Position numbers and translations under genes: made by a program
The notes under the pieces: model-generated
The model's input: the letters and a program-made list of their open reading frames with translations, nothing else
Told to the model about the DNA's origin: nothing
The model's database searches: none
IMG/VR virus record: IMGVR_UViG_2585427739_000008
Span: 1-9,432 of that record
Length of the DNA: 9,432 nt
Strand: one strand, 5' to 3'
DNA from: a virus
Lineage: Duplodnaviria; Heunggongvirae; Uroviricota; Caudoviricetes
In this document: positions 1 through 9,432 of the stretch, in pieces
Layout of the letters: the number at the start of each line of letters is the position of its first letter
How positions within the stretch are numbered: position 1 is the first letter of the stretch

Positions 1-285
1 GTATTCGGTGAACGCACTATGGCGACGCTGGGGCGTCTTATGAGCCTGCTGTCACCCTTTGACGTGGTGATATGGATGACGGATGGCTGGCCGCTGTATG
101 AATCCCGCCTGAAGGGAAAGCTGCACGTAATCAGCAAGCGATATACGCAGCGAATTGAGCGGCATAACCTGAATCTGAGGCAGCACCTGGCACGGCTGGG
201 ACGGAAGTCGCTGTCGTTTTCAAAATCGGTGGAGCTGCATGACAAAGTCATCGGGCATTATCTGAACATAAAACACTATCAATAA
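1..285 (+). CDS. insB: IS1 transposase InsB, C-terminal part (5' end lies outside the window)
   Basis: The frame is open from base 1 ([94 protein letters not shown]), which is the known InsB C-terminus. Stop codon at 283-285. Confidence 0.85.
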
Positions 286-300
286 GTTGGAGTCATTACC
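1..300 (+). mobile_element. IS1 insertion sequence, right-hand ~300 bp including the terminal inverted repeat (window starts inside the element)
   Basis: Bases 1-300 match the 3' third of IS1 as I recall it, ending in the characteristic terminus ...cactatcaataagttggagtcattacc at 274-300. Unrelated flanking sequence begins at 301. Confidence 0.9.
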
Positions 301-371: not shown

Positions 372-578
372 ATGCATAAAGATCAATACACTGATGCCCC
401 CTCCCAGGAGCAGGTTCGTGTAAAAACTATGCTTAATAGCACCATTTCGATGGGTTACCCGGATGTTGTAATTGCATGTATAGAACATCAAGTGTCTCTG
501 GAAGCATTCAGGGCAATTGAGGCCGCGTTAGTAAAGCACGATAAGAATACGAAGGATTATTCCCTAGTGGTTGACTGA
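372..578 (+). CDS. hypothetical small protein (68 aa), function unknown
   Basis: ORF with a GGAG Shine-Dalgarno 8 nt upstream of the ATG at 372. Lies between the IS1 end and the cos region. I do not recognise a family. Confidence 0.4.
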
Positions 579-941
579 TCACCATAACTGCTAACCATTC
601 TGACCATTTCACAAGTGACAGAGTCAATATCGTATTCTGTCACTGTCAGGCTAATACAGCAATGCAATTCAACTACAGCAATGCCTCGTATTTAGGTGAA
701 TTTACAATATCGTCCAGTTCGGATGCCGGCTGCATTTCTGAAGATAAGGCATTTCGGTTCTCGTATTTTCCCCTCATGCTCGTCAGTCCTGCGCGTAGTA
801 AGAAACAGGACACTCACACTAATTTGTGTGGGCATGCTGTGATGTCCTTCTGAATTATCCCCATGCCATTATGTAAAGCTCTGTTTCAGATGCTCGTCAC
901 GGTTGTCAGGCTGTCGGGTCCTCCCAGTGGGGGTCCCTGCC

Positions 942-961
942 ACGGGGCGGGAGCGTCGCGG
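942..961 (+). promoter_or_regulatory. cosN-like cohesive-end site of a lambdoid phage (core 12-mer about 945-956), with AT-rich cosB-like spacer 962-1140
   Basis: acggggcgggagcgtcgcgg resembles the lambda cos junction ACGGGGCGGCGACCTCGCGG (flanks identical, centre diverged). It sits about 185 bp upstream of the Nu1-like ATG at 1141, the same spacing as lambda cosN to Nu1. The intervening DNA is AT-rich with A/T tracts, as expected for IHF/terminase binding. Confidence 0.45.
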
Positions 962-1140
962 AAAAAGGCTAGTTTTTGCATTTCCATGGCGGCGGCAGCA
1001 TGTTTGGTAATTTATTGATAATTAAAAGTTATTTCTCTTTTCAGCTGTACAATATTTTTTTCTCCCTGTCATTAGACTAGTTTGCAATTAATTGAAATAT
1101 ATAAATAAACCTGATTTTCACCTGCCAGATGGAGTTGCTT

Positions 1141-1305
1141 ATGTCAAATGTGAGCGGGATCGGTGATGCTTATTACTGGAGTGTTTTTAAAATCGCCGAG
1201 GCCTTTGGGCTTCACCGGGACACAGTAAAAAAACGGCTCCTCGCGGCCAACACTCCTGTGGCTGCGACTGTCAGGGGGAACCCCGTTACCGGTTTGTCGC
1301 CTTAA
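1141..1305 (+). pseudogene. terminase small subunit (Nu1-like) N-terminal fragment
   Basis: A 54-codon ORF, MSNVSGIGDAYYWSVFKIAEAFGLHRDTVKKRLLAANTPV..., with a helix-turn-helix-like segment (IAEAFGLHRDTVKK) comparable to the lambda Nu1 N-terminus (LADIFGASIRTIQN). It stops prematurely at 1303-1305 and sits directly downstream of the cos-like site. Confidence 0.5.
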
Positions 1306-1600
1306 CCGATTACGACCGTTTTCCGGAGAATATCGACAGCGAGGGTGATGGTTTCTCCCAGGCCTCAAAACGTACCACCACATTTATGTCCGCCGGGATG
1401 ACTCTGGTGGAGAGCTCGCCGGGACGTGACATCTGCGACAGCAAATGGCGACGTAAGTCGCCTCATGAAGCGCCACCGACGACTGGTATTCTTTCCCTTT
1501 ACAATCGTGGTGACCGCCGCCGCTGGTACTGGCCATGTCCGCACTGCGGTGAATATTTTCAGCCAGCCATGGATGCCATGACCGGCTACCGTAATGAACC
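1290..1600 (+). pseudogene. terminase large subunit (lambda gpA family) internal fragment
   Basis: The frame starting at 1191 is open to 1685 and encodes ...VALTDYDRFPENIDSEGDGF...SPHE...WYWPCPHCGEYF, which aligns with lambda gpA residues around YDELAAFDDDIEQEGS...SPHFMRFHVACPHCGEEQ. There is no N-terminal ~200 codons and no C-terminal half, and the reading frame differs from both neighbours. Confidence 0.6.
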
Positions 1601-4065
1601 GGATCCCTTTAAAGCCAGTGATGCGCTGTATGCCGGTATGGAACGGGCAGACGCTGACGTTCGTGCAGGACCGACCATCAGATAAGGTGTGGACCTATAA
1701 CCGCAGTAATGTGGTGATGCCGGATGATGGCGCGCCGTTCCGCTACAGCTTCAGCGCCCTGAAGGACCGCCATAATGCCGTTGAGGTGAACTGGATTGAC
1801 CCGAACAACGGCTGGGAGACGGCGACAGAGCTTGTTGAAGATACGCAGGCCATTGCCCGTTACGGTCGTAATGTCACGAAGATGGATGCCTTTGGCTGTA
1901 CCAGCCGGGGGCAGGCACACCGCGCCGGGCTGTGGCTGATTAAAACGGAACTGCTGGAGACGCAGACCGTGGATTTCAGCGTGGGTGCTGAAGGGCTTCG
2001 CCATGTACCGGGCGATGTCATTGAAATCTGCGATGATGACTATGCCGGTATCAGCACCGGCGGGCGCGTGCTGGCGGTAAACAGCCAGACCCGGACGCTG
2101 ACGCTCGACCGTGAAATCACGCTGCCATCTTCCGGCACCACGCTGATAAGCCTGGTTGACGGGCAGGGGAGTCCGGTCAGCGTGGAGGTTCAGTCCGTCA
2201 CCGACGGCGTGAAGGTAAAAGTGAGCCGTGTTCCTGACGGTGTTGCTGAATACAGCGTATGGGGGCTGAAGCTGCCGACGCTGCGCCAGCGACTGTTCCG
2301 CTGCGTGAGTATCCGTGAGAACGACGACGGCACGTATGCCATCACCGCCGTGCAGCATGTGCCGGAAAAAGAGGCCATCGTGGATAACGGGGCGCACTTT
2401 GACGGCGACCAGAGCGGCACGGTGAATGGTGTCACGCCGCCAGCGGTGCAGCACCTGACTGCCGAAGTCACCGCAGACAGCGGGGAGTATCAGGTACTGG
2501 CCCGCTGGGACACGCCGAAGGTGGTGAAGGGGGTGAGCTTTATGCTTCGCCTGACCGTGGCAGCGGACGACGGCAGTGAGCGGCTGGTCAGCACGGCCCG
2601 GACGACAGAAACCACATACCGCTTCACGCAACTGGCGCTGGGACGGTACACGCTGACAGTCCGGGCGGTAAATGCGTGGGGACAGCAGGGCGATCCGGCG
2701 TCGGTATCGTTCCGGATTGCCGCACCGGTAGCACCGTCGCGGATTGAGCTGACGCCGGGCTATTTTCAGATAACTGCCACGCCGCATCTTGCGGTTTATG
2801 ATCCGACGGTACAGTTTGAGTTCTGGTTCTCGGAAACGCGGATTACCGATATCAGGCAGGTTGAAACCACAGCCCGCTACCTTAGTGCGGGGCTGTACTG
2901 GATAGCCGCCAGTATCAATATCAAACCGGGCCATGATTATTACTTTTATATCCGCAGTGTGAACACCGTTGGCAAATCGGCATTCGTGGAGGCTGTTGGT
3001 CAGCCGAGTGATGACGCATCCGGTTATCTGGATTTTTTCAAAGGCGAGATAGGGAAAACCCATCTGGCTCAGGAGCTGTGGACGCAGATTGATAACGGTC
3101 AGCTTGCGCCTGACCTGGCTGAAATCAGGACATCCATTACGGATGTCAGCAATGAAATCACACAGACCGTCAATAAGAAACTGGAAGACCAGAGTGCAGC
3201 GATCCAGCAGATACAGAAGGTTCAGGTTGATACAAATAATAACCTGAACAGCATGTGGGCCGTGAAACTGCAGCAGATGCAGGACGGACGCCTTTATATT
3301 GCGGGTATCGGTGCCGGTATTGAGAATACGCCAGCAGGAATGCAGAGTCAGGTGCTGCTGGCGGCAGACAGGATTGCGATGATTAATCCTGCGAATGGCA
3401 ACACAAAGCCGATGTTTGTTGGTCAGGGTGATCAGATATTCATGAACGACGTGTTCCTGAAACGCCTGACGGCTCCCACCATTACCAGCGGCGGTAATCC
3501 TCCGGTATTTTCCCTGACACCGGACGGGCGGCTGACGGCGAAAAATGCGGATATCAGTGGCAGTGTGAATGCGAACGCCGGGACGCTCAACAATGTCACG
3601 ATAAATGAAAACTGTCGGGTTCTGGGAAAACTGTCTGCGAACCAGATTGAAGGCGATCTCGTTAAAACAGTGGGCAAAGCTTTCCCCCGGGACTCCCGTG
3701 CACCGGAGCGGTGGCCATCAGGGACCATTACCGTCAGGGTTTATGACGATCAGCCGTTTGACCGGCAGATTGTTATTCCCGCGGTGGCGTTTCGTGGCGC
3801 TAAACATGAGCGGGAGAATAACGATATTTATTCGTCATGCCGCCTGATAGTGAAGAAAAACGGTGCTGAAATTTATAACCGTACCGCGCTGGATAATACG
3901 CTGGTTTATACAGGTGTTATTGATATGCCTGCTGGTCGCGGTCACATGACGCTGGAGTTTTCGGTATCAGCGTGGCTGGTAAATGACTGGTATCCCACAG
4001 CCAGTATCAGTGATTTGCTGGTTGTGGTGATGAAGAAAGCCACTGCAGGCATCACGATTAGCTGA
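1594..4065 (+). CDS. J: tail tip / host specificity protein J, C-terminal ~820 aa (N-terminally truncated, probably a non-expressed remnant)
   Basis: The translation closely matches lambda gpJ from about ...[35 protein letters not shown]... to the end, with FN3-like segments and a diverged C-terminal receptor-binding end. The frame is open from 1582. The first ATG (1594) has no Shine-Dalgarno, and about 300 N-terminal codons of a full J are absent. Confidence 0.85.
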
Positions 4066-4132: not shown

Positions 4133-4732
4133 ATGCGTAAAGTTTGTGCAGCCATTTTGTCCGCAGCCATCTGTCTGGCCGTATCCGGTGCGCCTGCATG
4201 GGCGTCTGAGCAGCAGGCCACACTGAGCGCAGGGTATCTTCATGCCCGTACGAACGCTCCCGGCAGCGATAATCTGAACGGGATTAACGTGAAATACCGT
4301 TATGAGTTTACGGACACGCTGGGGCTGATTACGTCATTCAGTTATGCCAACGCTGAAGATGAGCAAAAAACGCATTACAGCGATACCCGCTGGCATGAGG
4401 ATTCCGTGCGTAACCGCTGGTTCAGCGTGATGGTGGGGCCGTCTGTGCGCGTGAATGAATGGTTCAGCGCGTATGCGATGGCGGGTGTGGCTTACAGCCG
4501 TGTGTCGACTTTCTCCGGGGATTATCTCCGCGTAACTGACAACAAGGGGAAAACGCACGATGTGCTGACCGGAAGTGATGACGGTCGCCACAGCAACATG
4601 TCTCTGGCGTGGGGGGCTGGCGTGCAGTTTAACCCGACCGAATCCGTGGCCATTGATGTCGCTTATGAAGGCTCCGGCAGTGGCGACTGGCGCACTGACG
4701 GTTTCATCGTGGGTGTCGGTTATAAGTTCTGA
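4133..4732 (+). CDS. lom: Lom outer membrane protein (Ail/Lom/OmpX beta-barrel family)
   Basis: 199 aa with a signal peptide (MRKVCAAILSAAICLAVSGAPAWA) and a C-terminus ...VAYEGSGSGDWRTDGFIVGVGYKF identical in pattern to lambda Lom. GAGG Shine-Dalgarno 7 nt upstream. Position between J and stf as in lambda. Confidence 0.9.
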   Translation: MRKVCAAILSAAICLAVSGAPAWASEQQATLSAGYLHARTNAPGSDNLNGINVKYRYEFTDTLGLITSFSYANAEDEQKTHYSDTRWHEDSVRNRWFSVMVGPSVRVNEWFSAYAMAGVAYSRVSTFSGDYLRVTDNKGKTHDVLTGSDDGRHSNMSLAWGAGVQFNPTESVAIDVAYEGSGSGDWRTDGFIVGVGYKF

Positions 4733-4786: not shown

Positions 4787-4796
4787 TGGGGTGAAT

Positions 4797-7700
4797 ATGG
4801 CAGTAAAGATTTCAGGTGTACTGAAAGACGGTGCAGGTAAACCGGTACAGAACTGTACAATCCAGCTGAAAGCAAAACGTAACAGCACCACGGTGGTGGC
4901 GAACACGGTGGCCTCAGAAAATCCGGATGAAGCCGGGCGTTACAGCATGGACGTTGAGTACGGTCAGTACAGCGTTATTCTGTTGGTGGAAGGCTTCCCG
5001 CCATCGCATGCCGGGACCATCACCGTGTATGAAGACTCACAACCGGGTACGCTGAATGATTTTCTCGGTGCCATGACGGAGGATGATGTCCGTCCGGAGG
5101 CACTGCGCCGCTTTGAACTGATGGTGGAAGAGGTGGCGCGTAACGCGTCCGCAGTGGCACAGAACACGGCAGCCGCGAAGAAGTCAGCCAGCGATGCCCG
5201 CACATCAGCCCGTGAGGCGGCAACCCATGCGACTGATGCTGCGGACTCCGCACGCGCAGCCAGCACGTCAGCCGGACAGGCCGCGTCGTCGGCTCAGTCA
5301 GCGTCTTCCAGCGCAGGAACGGCATCAACAAAGGCTACTGAAGCATCAAAAAGTGCTGACGCTGCAGAGTCTTCAAAAAGCGCGGCAGCCACCAGTGCCG
5401 GTGCAGCGAAAACGTCAGAAACGAATGCCGCAGCATCACAAAAATCTGCGGCCACTTCTGCATCCACCGCGACCACGAAAGCGTCAGAAGCTGCCACCTC
5501 AGCCCGGGATGCGTCGGCTTCAAAAGTGGCGGCAAAATCATCAGAAACGAGCGCAGCCTCGAGCGCCGGCAGTGCAGCTTCCTCGGCAACGGCGGCAGGA
5601 AATTCCGCGAAGGCCGCAAAAACGTCTGAGACGAATGCGGATAACAGCGCACAGGCGGCAGCAGACTCACAAACTGCATCGGCAAATTCCGCGACAGCAG
5701 CCAAAAAATCAGAAACCAACGCGAAAAATAGTGAGTCAGCAGCAAAGGTCAGCGAAACCAACGCTAAAGCGTCAGAGAACAAGGCGAAAGAATATCTCGA
5801 CAAGGTCGGGGGACTCGTCAGCCCGATGACGCAATACGATTGGCCCGTTGTTACTGGTAATGAGTCTTTTTACATAAAGATCGCGAAACTTTCCGATCCC
5901 GGAAGCAACAATTGCCATGTAACGCTAATGGTTACTAACGGCGGTGACTACGGTTCCCCTTACGGAAACATTGACTTTATCGAGATCTCGGCGCGCGGTC
6001 TGCCTTCTTCGCTTACTGCTGATAATGTATCTCGTTACCTGAGTATACGCCGTTTAGGGCCAACCGGGCTAATCAATAGCATGCAAATGCGTTACGGCCT
6101 GGTTAAAGATGATGGCTTTATTGAGGTTTGGGCCTTCCAGCGTGCATTTATCAACGGCGCAAAGGTTGCGGTACTGGCGCAGACGGCACGCACGGAATTA
6201 TACATTCCAGACGGATTTGTTAAGCAAACCGCCGCGCCTTCTGGATATGTTGAAAGCCCCGTTGTAAGGATTTACGACCAGTTAAACAAGCCGACTAAAG
6301 CAGATTTGGGTCTTTCTAATGCTATGCTTACAGGCGCTTTCGGTCTTGGCGGTAGCGGGATATCAACAAACGGCAAGATGAGCGATGTAGAGATCTTAAA
6401 AGCTCTGCGTGACAAAGGTGGTCATTTCTGGCGCGGTGATAAGCCGACCGGAAGCACGGCGACCATTTATAGCCACGGTTCTGGTATATTCTCGCGGTGC
6501 GGCGATACGTGGTCAGCGATCAATATCGACTACTCAACCGCGAAGATTAAGATCTATGCCGGCAACGATGCCCGGCTTAACAACGGGACTTTTAGCATCA
6601 ATGAGCTATACGGCTCGGCAAACAAGCCGTCGAAATCGGATGTTGGACTTGGCAACGTAACGAACGATGCGCAGGTAAAAAAAACCGGCGATACAATGAC
6701 CTGTGACTTGACAATCAAAAAAGGTACACCGTCAGCCTTCCTGCGGGCAGACAGTGGAGTCACCGCTTTGCGGTTTTATACTGGCGATAACACAGAGCGC
6801 GGCATAATCTATGCTGGTCCTAACACTGATTCGCTTGGCGAAGTTCGCATCAGGGCAAAGACAGCAGGGGGGACATCAGGAGGGGATCTTGTTGTTCGTC
6901 ACGACGGGAGGGTTGAAGTCCGTGATCTCACAGTAGCGTATAAAATTAAAAGCAGAACGATTGAGATTGCAAATACCGACACTGACTCATCGGCAACTAC
7001 GCTAAGCATCTATGGAGTACAGCACACGCCGTTGGTTTTAACGCGTTCTGGTTCTTCTGAAAATGTGTCCATTGGGTTTAAGTTAGACAACGTGAACCCA
7101 AAGTATCTTGGAATTGATACTAATGGGGATCTGGCTTTTGGTGAGAGTCCTGATCAGAAACAAAACAGCAAATTGATCACGCAAGCGAAACTCGACAAGG
7201 GATTAACGATTGGTGGTCAACTGGCTTTCAAAGGTACGACAGCGTTTTCAGCCGCTGCTACGTTCAGTGCCGGGATAGCAGGAGCCATCGAGCCTGAAAA
7301 CATTGGCGGCCAGAAGGTTGATCTTAACAACCTGACCATCAGGTCAGATGCCGGGGCGGTTAAATACTATAGTTGTCCATCCTCTGGAGGTGGTGCAAAT
7401 ATCACCAACAAGCCTGACGGTGTAACCGGTAACTTTTTGCTCCGTGTAGAGTCGACTCGCAAAGTTTCTGCTTCGGATTATGCGAACATGCAAACGCTGA
7501 TCAGCAACGACACAAAACGTATATACGTTCGCTTTGTTGTTAATGGAAACTGGACAGCGTGGAGTCAGGTTGTTGTTTCCGGATGGAATCAGGATATAAC
7601 TGTCAGGTCGTTAACCACATCTAGTCCGGTAAAATCTGGCGGAGGGCGAATTGATGTCCTTGGAAGCACGTCAGACTATAGCAAAATGGATTGCTTTGTA

Positions 7701-8570
7701 CGTGGGTTTGATAGCACCGGTAATTCTCTCGCGTGGGCGTTGGGTTCATCAGTCGGCGTAAGTAAGATGCTGTCGCTAAAAAATTTCTTTAGCGGAGCTG
7801 AGATACTGTTAAATGGTAATGACGGCGCGGTTCAACTCAAAACAGGTGCTGTTAACGGGGCTACAGCGCAGGCGCTAACCATCAACAAAGATGAGGTTAA
7901 CTCAACTGCCGATTTAGTAATTAGAAAACAAACAGGGACTGGCAATCGTTTTGCTTTACTTAATTCAGGTAATTCAGAACTACCAGTTGGTATCAGGGTG
8001 TGGGGTTCCAGTACTCGACAAAACGTTTTTGAGGTTGGCACGTCTGCTGCGTATCTGTTTTATGCGCAAAAAACGTCAGCAGGCCAGTTGTTTGATGTAA
8101 ATGGCGCTATTAATTGCACAACGCTGAATCAGTCATCAGACCGCGACCTTAAAGACGATATTCTCGTTATCAGCGACGCGACGAAAGCAATCCGTAAAAT
8201 GAACGGATACACCTACACGCTCAGGGAAAACGGGATGCCTTATGCTGGCGTTATTGCACAGGAAGTAATGGAGGCGATACCAGAAGCTGTGGGATCGTTT
8301 ACTCATTATGGTGAAGAGTTGCAAGGTCCGACCATTGACGGCAACGAGCTACGCGAAGAAACGCGCTATCTTAATGTTGACTACGCCGCCGTGACGGGCT
8401 TACTTGTTCAGTTCGCCCGTGAAACAGATGATCGCGTTACCGCGCTGGAAGAGGAAAACACAACGCTACGTCAAAATCTGGCAACAGCAGACACCCGGAT
8501 CAGCACTCTGGAAAATCAGGTAAGCGAACTGGTTGCACTTGTCCGGCAGTTAACAGGAAGCGAACATTGA
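4797..8570 (+). CDS. stf: side tail fiber protein, mosaic: lambda Stf-like N-terminus, Ala/Ser-rich shaft, unrelated distal module, C-terminal intramolecular chaperone domain
   Basis: From the ATG at 4797 the protein begins MAVKISGVLKDGAGKPVQNCTIQLKAKRNSTTV..., near-identical to the lambda Stf N-terminus. The ORF track starts at an in-frame GTG at 4791. The gene is 1257 codons from the ATG, with a GGGGTGA Shine-Dalgarno just upstream and a stop at 8568-8570. Confidence 0.85.
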   Translation: MAVKISGVLKDGAGKPVQNCTIQLKAKRNSTTVVANTVASENPDEAGRYSMDVEYGQYSVILLVEGFPPSHAGTITVYEDSQPGTLNDFLGAMTEDDVRPEALRRFELMVEEVARNASAVAQNTAAAKKSASDARTSAREAATHATDAADSARAASTSAGQAASSAQSASSSAGTASTKATEASKSADAAESSKSAAATSAGAAKTSETNAAASQKSAATSASTATTKASEAATSARDASASKVAAKSSETSAASSAGSAASSATAAGNSAKAAKTSETNADNSAQAAADSQTASANSATAAKKSETNAKNSESAAKVSETNAKASENKAKEYLDKVGGLVSPMTQYDWPVVTGNESFYIKIAKLSDPGSNNCHVTLMVTNGGDYGSPYGNIDFIEISARGLPSSLTADNVSRYLSIRRLGPTGLINSMQMRYGLVKDDGFIEVWAFQRAFINGAKVAVLAQTARTELYIPDGFVKQTAAPSGYVESPVVRIYDQLNKPTKADLGLSNAMLTGAFGLGGSGISTNGKMSDVEILKALRDKGGHFWRGDKPTGSTATIYSHGSGIFSRCGDTWSAINIDYSTAKIKIYAGNDARLNNGTFSINELYGSANKPSKSDVGLGNVTNDAQVKKTGDTMTCDLTIKKGTPSAFLRADSGVTALRFYTGDNTERGIIYAGPNTDSLGEVRIRAKTAGGTSGGDLVVRHDGRVEVRDLTVAYKIKSRTIEIANTDTDSSATTLSIYGVQHTPLVLTRSGSSENVSIGFKLDNVNPKYLGIDTNGDLAFGESPDQKQNSKLITQAKLDKGLTIGGQLAFKGTTAFSAAATFSAGIAGAIEPENIGGQKVDLNNLTIRSDAGAVKYYSCPSSGGGANITNKPDGVTGNFLLRVESTRKVSASDYANMQTLISNDTKRIYVRFVVNGNWTAWSQVVVSGWNQDITVRSLTTSSPVKSGGGRIDVLGSTSDYSKMDCFVRGFDSTGNSLAWALGSSVGVSKMLSLKNFFSGAEILLNGNDGAVQLKTGAVNGATAQALTINKDEVNSTADLVIRKQTGTGNRFALLNSGNSELPVGIRVWGSSTRQNVFEVGTSAAYLFYAQKTSAGQLFDVNGAINCTTLNQSSDRDLKDDILVISDATKAIRKMNGYTYTLRENGMPYAGVIAQEVMEAIPEAVGSFTHYGEELQGPTIDGNELREETRYLNVDYAAVTGLLVQFARETDDRVTALEEENTTLRQNLATADTRISTLENQVSELVALVRQLTGSEH
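5110..5790 (+). repeat. degenerate Ala/Ser/Thr-rich coding repeats within stf (recurring AAKTSETNA-like units)
   Basis: GC-rich low-complexity stretch. The motif gcnaaaacgtc(a/t)ga(a/g)acgaatgc recurs at about 5404, 5614, 5700 and 5750. It corresponds to the Ala-rich shaft region of lambda Stf. Confidence 0.6.
8136..8567 (+). other. C-terminal intramolecular chaperone domain (peptidase S74-like, self-cleaving) of the tail fiber
   Basis: The last ~144 codons begin with S-D-R-D-L-K (Ser codon 8136-8138, Lys codon 8151-8153), matching the Ser...Lys dyad spacing (SDRxLK) of autoproteolytic chaperone domains in phage endosialidases, T5 L-shaped fibers and MYRF. This is followed by ...KMNGYTYTL... 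and a coiled-coil-like tail. Confidence 0.6.
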
Positions 8571-8745
8571 TATCCTTCAAGCTCTGAAGGAGGCTGTTCC
8601 CGGTACGTTCAGACTGTTGTTGAGCTGGAAATCGCAACGGAGGAAGAAACCTTGTTGCTGGAAGCCTGGAAAAAGTATCGGGTGTTGCTGAACCGTGTTG
8701 ATACGTCAACTGCACAGGATATTGAATGGCCAGCACTGCCGTAGG
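8571..8745 (+). pseudogene. tfa: tail fiber assembly protein (Tfa) C-terminal remnant, no start codon
   Basis: Immediately after the stf stop, in the same frame, the sequence translates as ...[42 protein letters not shown]. This matches the conserved C-terminus of Tfa/U-type chaperones. There is no in-frame start, so only about 58 codons remain. Confidence 0.55.
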
Positions 8746-8841
8746 GTAAAACATATAAATTCTATAATTAGATGTATCTTTCCATTTACGGCAAGGAAGG
8801 GGGCTTGGAAGACGTAAAGCATCTCACACCGAGATTATTTT

Positions 8842-9432
8842 TTATATGTCAGGTGTCTGAAGTTTTGCTTTGGCTCTTAAAATGGTTTGCCGCGAGGTTT
8901 TGAATTCCCGGGCAATGGCACTTATACTTACACCTGACTTAATTCGTTCGAATACCACCTGTTTCTGTTCTTCATTTAACACAGGTGGTCGACCAAAACG
9001 TTTCCCTGCGCCGCGGGCTCTTACTATCCCGGAATGAGTGCGTTCAAGTAAAAGGTCTCGTTCAAATTCAGCGACTGCTGAAATTACGTGCATCATCATT
9101 TTTCCTGTTGGACTGGTCAGGTCAATGCCCCCCAATGCTAAGCAATGCACTCTGATACCTGTTTCGGTCAGTTGTTCCACTGTTTTCCTGATATCCATTG
9201 CATTACAACCAAGGCGATCCAGTTTTGTCACAATCAATTGATCACCACATTTCAGGCGAGCAAGCAACCGGTTAAAACCAGGACGCTCACTGGTTGCTGC
9301 TGAGCCGCTAATGTGTTCTTCGATTATTTGCTGAGGTTTGATTTTAAAACCTGCACTTTCGATTTCCCGGCGTTGATTTTCGGTGGTCTGATCCAGCGTT
9401 GATATCCGACAGTAAGCAAAAATTCGAGACAT
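8842..9432 (-). CDS. pin: serine recombinase, Pin/Gin/Hin-family DNA invertase (196 aa; resembles PinR/PinQ of E. coli cryptic prophages)
   Basis: The minus-strand ORF begins [20 protein letters not shown]... (catalytic Ser in the YxRxST motif) and has a C-terminal helix-turn-helix ([18 protein letters not shown]). Its start codon is the last three bases of the window. It is convergent with stf/tfa, as in Rac-type prophages. Confidence 0.9.

Follow-up and report, generated by a model that had tools for sequence, protein, structure and literature searches.

The 9,432-nt stretch of DNA analyzed in this study (the window) was placed at the ydfJ locus of E. coli and corresponded to a decayed lambdoid prophage of the Qin/Tritos type. 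The segment is very probably the packaging-to-tail part of this ydfJ-integrated prophage, inactivated by illegitimate-recombination deletions; the region represents the ordinary decay of a prophage, a known kind. The window was 99.9-100% identical to the matching chromosomes, in which PGAP called the same three pseudogenes between gnsB/IS1 and lom-stf-pinQ-ydfK-ydfJ'. The context of the locus was read from the annotation of a 100%-identical strain, NT1F25, and compared with MG1655: integration in ydfJ and two flanking gene sets (cspI-ynfQ-ynfN-gnsB and pinQ-ydfK-ynfT) identified the Qin locus. A search of the whole window against Rfam gave zero matches to structured RNAs, and no promoters or terminators above chance were detected between positions 300 and 1800. 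The features of the packaging and tail region are listed in Table 1.

Table 1. Coordinates of packaging-site elements, gene remnants, and deletion junctions in the window.
Feature	Position	Strand	Description
cosQ-like heptamer GGGTCCT	916..922	+	22 nt upstream of predicted top-strand nick; same as lambda cosQ
cosN	942..961	+	predicted 12-nt cohesive end 945-956 GGGCGGGAGCGT
cosB-like region	957..1140	+	24-30% GC from about 1000; placed by position
IHF consensus TATCAATAAATTA (WATCAANNNNTTR)	1008..1020	-	consensus match
Small-terminase (TerS) pseudogene	1141..1305	+	49 native codons (1141-1287), 5 out-of-frame codons, stop 1303-1305; frame 1
Junction 1	1286..1287	.	882-bp deletion: TerS codons 50-175 and TerL codons 1-164; TT microhomology
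Large-terminase (TerL) fragment	1287..1621	+	codons 165-275 of 699, frame 0, part of gpA ATPase domain
Junction 2	1620..1621	.	14,630-bp deletion: TerL codons 276-699, 15 whole head/tail genes, J codons 1-345
J (tail tip/host specificity) pseudogene	1621..4065	+	C-terminal 814 codons (~70%), frame 1, no internal stops

Deletion endpoints and the remaining gene fragments

NZ_AP027865 has an intact prophage at this locus, with TerS, TerL, portal, protease/capsid fusion, and tail genes together with full-length J. The deletions were measured by collinear blocks and three-way junction alignment with this prophage and Tritos (E. coli LF82 prophage 3); the genes lost in the 14,630-bp interval were read from the intact-prophage annotation. 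The window lineage has lost intact-prophage coordinates 1358-2239 and 2574-17203: 882 + 14,630 = 15,512 bp in total, in agreement with the absence of about 15 kb of head and tail genes proposed in the first-pass annotation. The endpoints expected near 1280-1300 and 1560-1660 were also located within these ranges (Table 1). The deletions were not nested, as had been proposed, but adjacent, with a 334-bp TerL island between them. At junction 1, position 343 of Tritos was joined to 1224; at junction 2, the GA microhomology was inside a patch with 7 of 9 bases matching. Because just 2 bp of strict microhomology was found per junction, the events appeared to be independent of homologous recombination, and may have occurred through slippage, end-joining, or one complex template-switch event. 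The smaller deletion joined a DUF1441 small terminase, at codon 49, to a gpA-type large terminase, at codon 165; the larger one joined codon 275/276 of the latter to codon 346 of J.

The TerS fragment, a pseudogene according to PGAP, showed 99% DNA identity to TerS of Tritos. It matched positions 3-36 of the Pfam DUF1441 profile (PF07278) with an E value of 9.5e-4, under the gathering score because of its truncation, and the full-length parent matched with an E value of 1.6e-44. This profile match, together with the location of the gene between cos and a gpA-type large terminase (synteny), assigned it to the DUF1441 small terminases. The ATG at 1141 was 196 nt from the left cohesive end (190 nt between the Nu1 start and the end in lambda). 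The earlier description of a Nu1-like start at a lambda-like distance was, therefore, correct with respect to position and role, but not family: Pfam returned DUF1441 only (and not Phage_Nu1) for both the fragment and parent, and BLASTP against lambda Nu1 gave an E value of 4.6. The TerL fragment matched positions 129-212 of the GpA_ATPase profile (E=4.3e-27), and its identities to the intact prophage and Tritos were 99.4 and 98.8%, respectively. The large terminase is a homologue of lambda gpA (E=7e-22); the nuclease domain (GpA_nuclease) was missing from the window, and the remnant is a fragment of a gpA family member, not a full-length, functional one. Its reading continues out of frame into J DNA up to a stop at 1683-1685. 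The possibility of an intact unrelated protein over 1141-1685 was rejected by the use of three frames, the stops at 1303-1305 and 1683-1685, and 99% DNA identity to terminase genes.

The J remnant lacked the N-terminal 345 codons of the intact prophage gene and was not full-length (PGAP also reported a missing N-terminus), while all of the C-terminal domains were present; Pfam matches were Phage-tail_3 (partial), Ig_J, Ig_J_second, Phage_Tail_Tip, and Ig_GpJ_C. Positions 1620-2000 were 98-100% identical to J of lambdoid phages, including 2B8, PhiR26_1, and 434. The 814-codon frame may still be open because the fragment is young, because incoming phages have recombined with it, or because of selection. 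The sizes and frames previously estimated for the three remnants (about 45 small-terminase codons in frame 1, about 100 codons from the middle of a gpA-type gene in frame 0, and the C-terminal two-thirds of J in frame 1) were close to those in Table 1. On the other hand, since the frames are 1, 0, and 1, there is no translational fusion, and the fragments described as fused are juxtaposed in three differing frames. The sole exception is a mechanical ORF of 823 codons (1594-4065), which begins in DNA derived from TerL, outside the TerL frame, and enters the native J frame. The three pseudogene fragments (frames 1/0/1) are incapable of making terminase, heads, or tails, and the element itself is inert.

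The two scars co-occurred in 14 of the 5,426 complete E. coli genomes, with the fragments annotated as pseudogenes by PGAP, and no genome among the 5,426 carried a single junction (an intermediate allele). The presence of both junctions in 14 independent complete assemblies excluded an assembly artefact. These genomes came from pigs, dogs, humans, river water, and salad, and have since acquired differing IS insertions and tail-fibre mosaics. The scars are older than the diversification of the strains, and the proposal of relatively recent deletions needs to be qualified accordingly.

The cos site and its possible use in trans

The cosN-like sequence suspected at 942-961 was verified by alignment: ACGGGGCGGGAGCGTCGCGG and lambda cosN (ACGGGGCGGCGACCTCGCGG) were equal at 16 of 20 bases, with 8 of 12 in the predicted overhang and identical flanks (ACG and CGCGG). 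A lambda-type cosN was defined as a GC-rich nicking site with 12-nt 5' cohesive ends, homologous to GGGCGGCGACCT of lambda, with the flanks ACG/CGCGG; the window site agreed with this definition in sequence and flanks, with a predicted 12-nt end, and was accompanied by a lambda-type cosQ. The latter heptamer, located at lambda 48473-48479 and so labelled in Fig. S8 of PMC2669165, was also kept in Tritos, PhiR40_1, mEp460, HS, and K-12 Qin, and its spacing to the nick was 22 nt in the window versus 23 in lambda. A strict search for lambda cosN (three or fewer mismatches), run both alone and combined with cosQ at the lambda distance, returned nothing in the window because the site has four mismatches and a spacer shorter by 1 nt. 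The degenerate pattern ACGGGGCGGNNNCNTCGCGG had a single occurrence in the window and none in 200 shuffled sequences. The genome records of Tritos (OV696610) and cdtI (AB285204) both begin at window base 945, starts that may have been set by analogy with lambda. Three differences separated window positions 945-1287 from bases 1-343 of the viable phage Tritos (99.1% identity).

The cosB-like region (957-1140) is presumed, from its position, to be the binding region of the DUF1441 small terminase; a search for repeated small-terminase binding sites in it found weak two-copy repeats only, none convincing. The IHF consensus gave two matches in the window versus 0.34 expected, which is weak when taken alone, and the TTATTGAT core was kept in PhiR40_1, an O157 prophage, and mEp460, whose cos regions are divergent. 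Judging from these sequence comparisons, the cis-acting packaging site (cosQ, cosN, and the cosB-like region) is untouched and essentially identical to those of viable phages. It is plausible that a co-infecting phage of the Tritos or cdtI type could still recognise this site in trans and nick it. Lambda packaging proceeds from cosN toward the terminase genes. The same direction in the window would run into J', lom, stf, and pinQ, and then into the adjacent chromosome.

This arrangement raises the question of whether the remnant has been kept by selection, either as a helper-mobilisable cos with a J'-lom-stf-pinQ cassette or as a decoy titrating or misdirecting a Tritos-type terminase; we consider this to be very unlikely. 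Although three independent collapses at the ydfJ locus all retained cos and distal tail/fibre genes, and the cos region has 99% identity with its counterpart in a viable phage, a non-coding site of 200 bp left next to a deletion is the expected outcome of neutral decay. The J' frame is open over 814 codons, whereas IS1, IS2, and IS3 insertions are accumulating in and around the remnant, and no promoter-like site was present in 300-1800. In the case of Sp4/Sp14, a prophage with a defective terminase has been inferred to be packaged by a second one whose cos is identical (PMC2669165), and matching helpers should be common, since the window-type cos was present in 880 of the 5,426 genomes; however, a second Tritos-type terminase was found in none of the 14 scar-bearing genomes (one place per record), and a downstream second cos to end lambda-type packaging was absent. 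Furthermore, the window allele was limited to 14 of the 5,426 genomes, and the HS allele to strain HS. The three independent losses of the morphogenesis block with cos kept (the window lineage, HS, and K-12) could reflect selection for "cos plus host-range cassette", a prospect to which we attach very little weight. If true, a superinfecting Tritos-type phage would cut the cassette in trans, leading to one-ended packaging/transduction of J'-lom-stf-pinQ and the adjacent chromosome, or the site would be a terminase decoy lowering the phage yield.

It is extremely improbable that the cos-like sequence is non-functional or a chance resemblance and that the terminase of this phage group cuts elsewhere: in spite of an overhang differing from lambda at 4 of 12 positions, a small terminase outside the Nu1 family, and no experimental determination of the ends found in the literature (none reported for Tritos in PMC9928086 and none found for cdtI), the order cosQ-spacer-cosN was shared in both sequence and location by lambda, K-12 Qin, Tritos, PhiR40_1, an O157 prophage, and mEp460 with diverging flanks, two independent phage records begin at 945, the large terminase is homologous to gpA, and shuffled sequences never contained the degenerate pattern.

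The value of the preferred reading, namely, inactivation of a Qin/Tritos-type prophage by illegitimate-recombination deletions, is mostly limited to annotation. Base-exact deletion endpoints and the parent structure are now given for one Qin-type cryptic prophage allele, which is another case of cryptic-prophage decay via short-microhomology deletions sparing cos and distal tail-fibre genes. Distal tail-fibre genes of cryptic prophages recombine with infecting lambdoid phages (PMC3945230).

Comparison with known prophages and phages

Among the relatives compared, Tritos and cdtI showed 98.8-99.1 and 97.4-98.7% DNA identities, respectively, over cos, the TerS start, and the TerL fragment, and Tritos also carried the Qin-type accessory genes gnsB, cspI, ynfN, and hokD. 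Tritos is complete and makes virions and plaques (PMC9928086), whereas 15.5 kb of the Tritos morphogenesis genes is missing from the window. Lambda cos was similar in the identical cosQ, cosN (16/20), TerS spacing (196 vs 190 nt), downstream IHF consensus, and gpA-family TerL, and differed in the overhang (4/12), an unrelated cosB sequence, and the small subunit (DUF1441 in the window, not Nu1). Prophages Sp4/Sp14 of O157 Sakai provided a parallel in which a terminase-defective prophage keeps cos: Sp4 DNA undergoes packaging, for which the terminase of Sp14, a prophage with the identical cos, is apparently responsible (PMC2669165). However, Sp4 still excises, is amplified, and has a resident partner, while the 14 scar genomes have no second such terminase.

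K-12 Qin occupies the same integration site, with cspI, ynfQ, ynfN, and gnsB upstream and pinQ, ydfK, ynfT, and ydfJ' downstream, and has similarly lost the head-tail block with cosQ-cosN kept, followed by a small-terminase gene abutting tail/fibre genes. However, it has a lambda-identical cos and Nu1-type nohA joined to stfQ, whereas the window has a Tritos-type cos, DUF1441 TerS, and an extra TerL island, with J', lom, and full-length stf kept. Positions 8622-9432 alone aligned with the K-12 Qin segment (NC_000913.3 1630000-1645000), and the two sets of deletions are independent. The allele of E. coli HS, at the same locus, has a cos 100% identical over 880-1140 and a large TerL-to-J deletion with a 2-nt overlap at the junction. 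It differs in that only one deletion, of 14,876 bp, is present (2125-17000 of the intact prophage), with the small terminase intact and large-terminase codons 1-126 retained, and neither the HS nor the window allele is derivable from the other. K-12 Qin and strain HS are independent equivalents of the collapse in the window.

Deletion scars between the terminase genes and J

Thirteen complete E. coli chromosomes matched positions 600-2000 at 99.9-100% identity, and a fourteenth genome did so at 99.1% across 93% of this range. In NT1F25, the best-matching strain, the corresponding region sits inside a prophage whose gene set and integration site, when annotations were compared, were those of the K-12 cryptic prophage Qin: essQ, rrrQ, rzpQ, cspI, ynfQ, ynfN, gnsB, and an IS1 upstream, and lom, the side tail fibre gene (stf), a tfa fragment, pinQ, ydfK, ynfT, and truncated ydfJ downstream. 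Three consecutive pseudogenes were annotated there by PGAP, and the remnants are already carried as such in RefSeq.

Strain 2017.20.01CC (NZ_AP027865) has an intact prophage at the same locus, in the order gnsB, ybcW-like gene, cos, small (TerS) and large (TerL) terminase genes, adaptor, portal, protease/capsid fusion, head-tail and tail genes, full-length tail tip gene J (1132 codons), lom, stf, tfa', pinQ, ydfK, and ydfJ'. Three-way alignment placed junction 1 at a TT common to both parents, and junction 2 at a common GA within a 9-base stretch that matches at 7 positions; microhomology of only 2 bp points to illegitimate recombination as the probable origin of the deletions. The first (882 bp) removed TerS codons 50-175 and TerL codons 1-164, and the second (14,630 bp) TerL codons 276-699, 15 complete genes (annotated as head-tail adaptor through tail assembly protein I), and J codons 1-345; 15,512 bp are missing in total. 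The deletions, described as nested in the first-pass annotation, are adjacent, with a 334-bp island of TerL sequence between them.

Features of the window and matching segments of the intact prophage (reverse complement of locus L005, NZ_AP027865)
Feature	Window	Intact prophage	Remarks
IS1 right end	1-300		insB 3' end and terminal inverted repeat; between gnsB and ybcW-like ORF
Left segment	301-1287	371-1357	99.6% identity
68-codon ORF	372-578		'YbcW' in Tritos annotation, 'hypothetical' in RefSeq
Repeat unit 5' of cosQ	897-915
cosQ heptamer	916-922		GGGTCCT, as in lambda
cosN	942-961
Direct repeat AGRCTAGTTT	966-975, 1074-1083		weak; within putative cosB
IHF consensus	1008-1020 (minus)		perfect
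TerS'	1141-1296		PGAP: 'terminase, missing C-terminus'
TerL segment	1286-1625	2238-2577	99.4% identity
Junction 1	1286/1287
TerL'	1287-1625		PGAP: 'phage terminase large subunit, missing N- and C-terminus'
J segment	1620-3051	17202-18633	95.2% identity
Junction 2	1620/1621
J'	1621-4065		PGAP: 'phage tail tip protein, missing N-terminus'
Ail/Lom gene	4133-4732		199 codons, intact
stf ORF	4791-8570		1259 codons, apparently intact
tfa fragment	8619-8744		adjoins pinQ
pinQ	8842-9432 (minus)		cut by window end

TerS' (MSNVSG...RGNPV) retains 49 native residues followed by TGLSP and a stop at 1303-1305. TerL' has no stop between 1287 (Y165) and 1621; it then enters J DNA out of frame, where 21 codons precede the stop at 1683-1685. 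Of the GpA_ATPase profile it covers only positions 129-212. J' has 814 open codons with all C-terminal J domains; since J in the window is 81 nt longer than the intact reference, within the C-terminal mosaic part, its retained share is about 70%. The terminase fragments had been read as fused to J; however, the three remnants lie in frames 1, 0, and 1, and no fusion protein is therefore encoded. The first nine codons of a mechanical ORF (1594-4065) are TerL-derived and out of frame. No promoter-like sites were found in 300-1800, and an Rfam scan of the whole window gave no match.

The full-length parent TerS (175 aa) matched Pfam DUF1441 (E=1.6e-44), while similarity to lambda Nu1 was not significant (E=4.6); its membership of the Nu1 family was rejected, and the earlier label 'Nu1-like' fits its position and role only. 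The large subunit, judged by its sequence, is truly homologous to gpA (E=7e-22 with the lambda protein; GpA_ATPase and GpA_nuclease domains in the parent).

The retained cos region

The nicking site, cosN (ACGGGGCGGGAGCGTCGCGG), matched that of lambda (ACGGGGCGGCGACCTCGCGG) at 16 of 20 bases: the flanks were identical, and all four differences fell within the 12-nt overhang. A degenerate cosN pattern had a single match in the window, and none in any of 200 shuffles. Stricter lambda-cos patterns found no match in the window, solely because of the four mismatches and a cosQ spacer one base shorter; the predicted nick lies 22 nt beyond the heptamer, versus 23 in lambda (labels from Fig. S8, PMC2669165). 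Base 945 is the first base of two phage genome records, Tritos (OV696610) and cdtI (AB285204), and the first 343 bp of Tritos were 99.1% identical to the window. Tritos, prophage 3 of E. coli LF82, forms siphovirus particles and plaques on K-12 (PMC9928086). Experimental end determination for this cos type was not found in the literature, and the cut position thus rests on homology and the deposited starts of these records. The TerS ATG follows the cohesive end at 196 nt (190 nt for lambda Nu1), and GC drops from 66% to 24-30% 3' of cosN. The IHF consensus is weak alone (2 matches in the window versus 0.34 expected); cos regions that have diverged (PhiR40_1, mEp460, and an O157 prophage) still share its TTATTGAT core, but not the sequence around it. 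Alignment to Tritos and the intact prophage thus confirmed the earlier observation of a retained cos site and a terminase/J collapse, and supported its interpretation with minor corrections.

Within the putative TerS-binding stretch (cosB), copy 1 of the direct repeat was kept in all cos regions compared, and copy 2, 108 bp away, was not kept in PhiR40_1; the two copies may be contacts of the small terminase or may match by chance. Just 5' of cosQ, the window reads GGTTGTCA GGCTGTC and the Tritos right end (L006) GGCTGTCA GGCTGTCA GGCTGTC, the extra 8-bp unit being a small tandem copy-number difference.

Distribution of the scars and the distal genes

The cos region (at least 80% of 880-1140) occurred in 880 of 5,426 genomes. 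Probes of 120 bp centred on each junction, with a full match required, both matched the same 14 of these genomes; none carried one junction without the other, and the deletions may represent two events, in either order, or one complex event. A TerS/TerL probe had a single matching place in each of the 14, which therefore lack a second terminase of that type. These genomes, from pig, dog, human, river water, and salad, vary in IS1, IS2, and IS3 insertions and in their stf mosaics (whole-window identity 97.9-98.8%), and the scars that they share are thus older than their diversification. The deletions had been called recent, which fits the 99.4-99.6% identity of the fragments to the intact copy, but not the age of the scars relative to this diversification.

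The IS1 insertion point was common only to NT1F25 among complete E. coli genomes; alignments of the remaining scar-bearing genomes begin at 301, and the insertion is therefore younger than the deletions. The 68-codon ORF had no match in a Pfam search, and is kept 5' of cos in the intact prophage, E. coli HS, and Tritos. Directly 3' of truncated J lies the outer-membrane protein gene (Pfam Ail_Lom, E=5e-125). Domains recognised in the stf product are phage_tail_N and, C-terminally, the intramolecular chaperone Peptidase_S74; identity in this region falls to about 98% among scar-bearing genomes, suggesting mosaic exchange. For K-12 Qin, a recent paper reports that PinQ blocks phage T2 via inversion of a prophage e14 segment (PMC12529663).

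Packaging potential and comparable alleles

The element is unable to package itself. A viable phage has a matching cos region, so that terminase supplied in trans by a phage of the Tritos or cdtI type could plausibly cut the predicted site (945-956); packaging would then run rightwards, by analogy with lambda. In O157 Sakai, the terminase-defective prophage Sp4 apparently relies for packaging on the terminase of Sp14, a prophage with an identical cos (PMC2669165). Breaks at the DLP12 cos site are a proposed stimulus of recombination with lambda, with which Qin and Rac fibre genes recombine (PMC3945230). That selection for a role has kept the remnant is nevertheless very improbable: the window allele is rare, IS elements are building up in and around the remnant, the scar-bearing genomes have no resident helper, and no second cos was seen downstream. 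The remnant is a product of ordinary prophage decay.

The head-tail block has collapsed independently in two more alleles at the ydfJ locus. In E. coli HS, TerS is intact and TerL codons 1-126 are joined to a J fragment (L003 7078-10100), with intact-prophage coordinates 2125-17000 lost and a 2-nt overlap at the junction; each of the HS and window alleles keeps sequence absent from the other, and neither is therefore derivable from the other. In K-12 Qin, a lambda-identical cosQ-cosN (NC_000913.3 1636540-1636559) lies 5' of nohA, which adjoins stfQ (L013 5799-6560). In all three alleles, cos and distal tail or fibre genes survive, and loss of the morphogenesis block with this pattern of survival is thus a recurring, already familiar outcome of cryptic-prophage decay.
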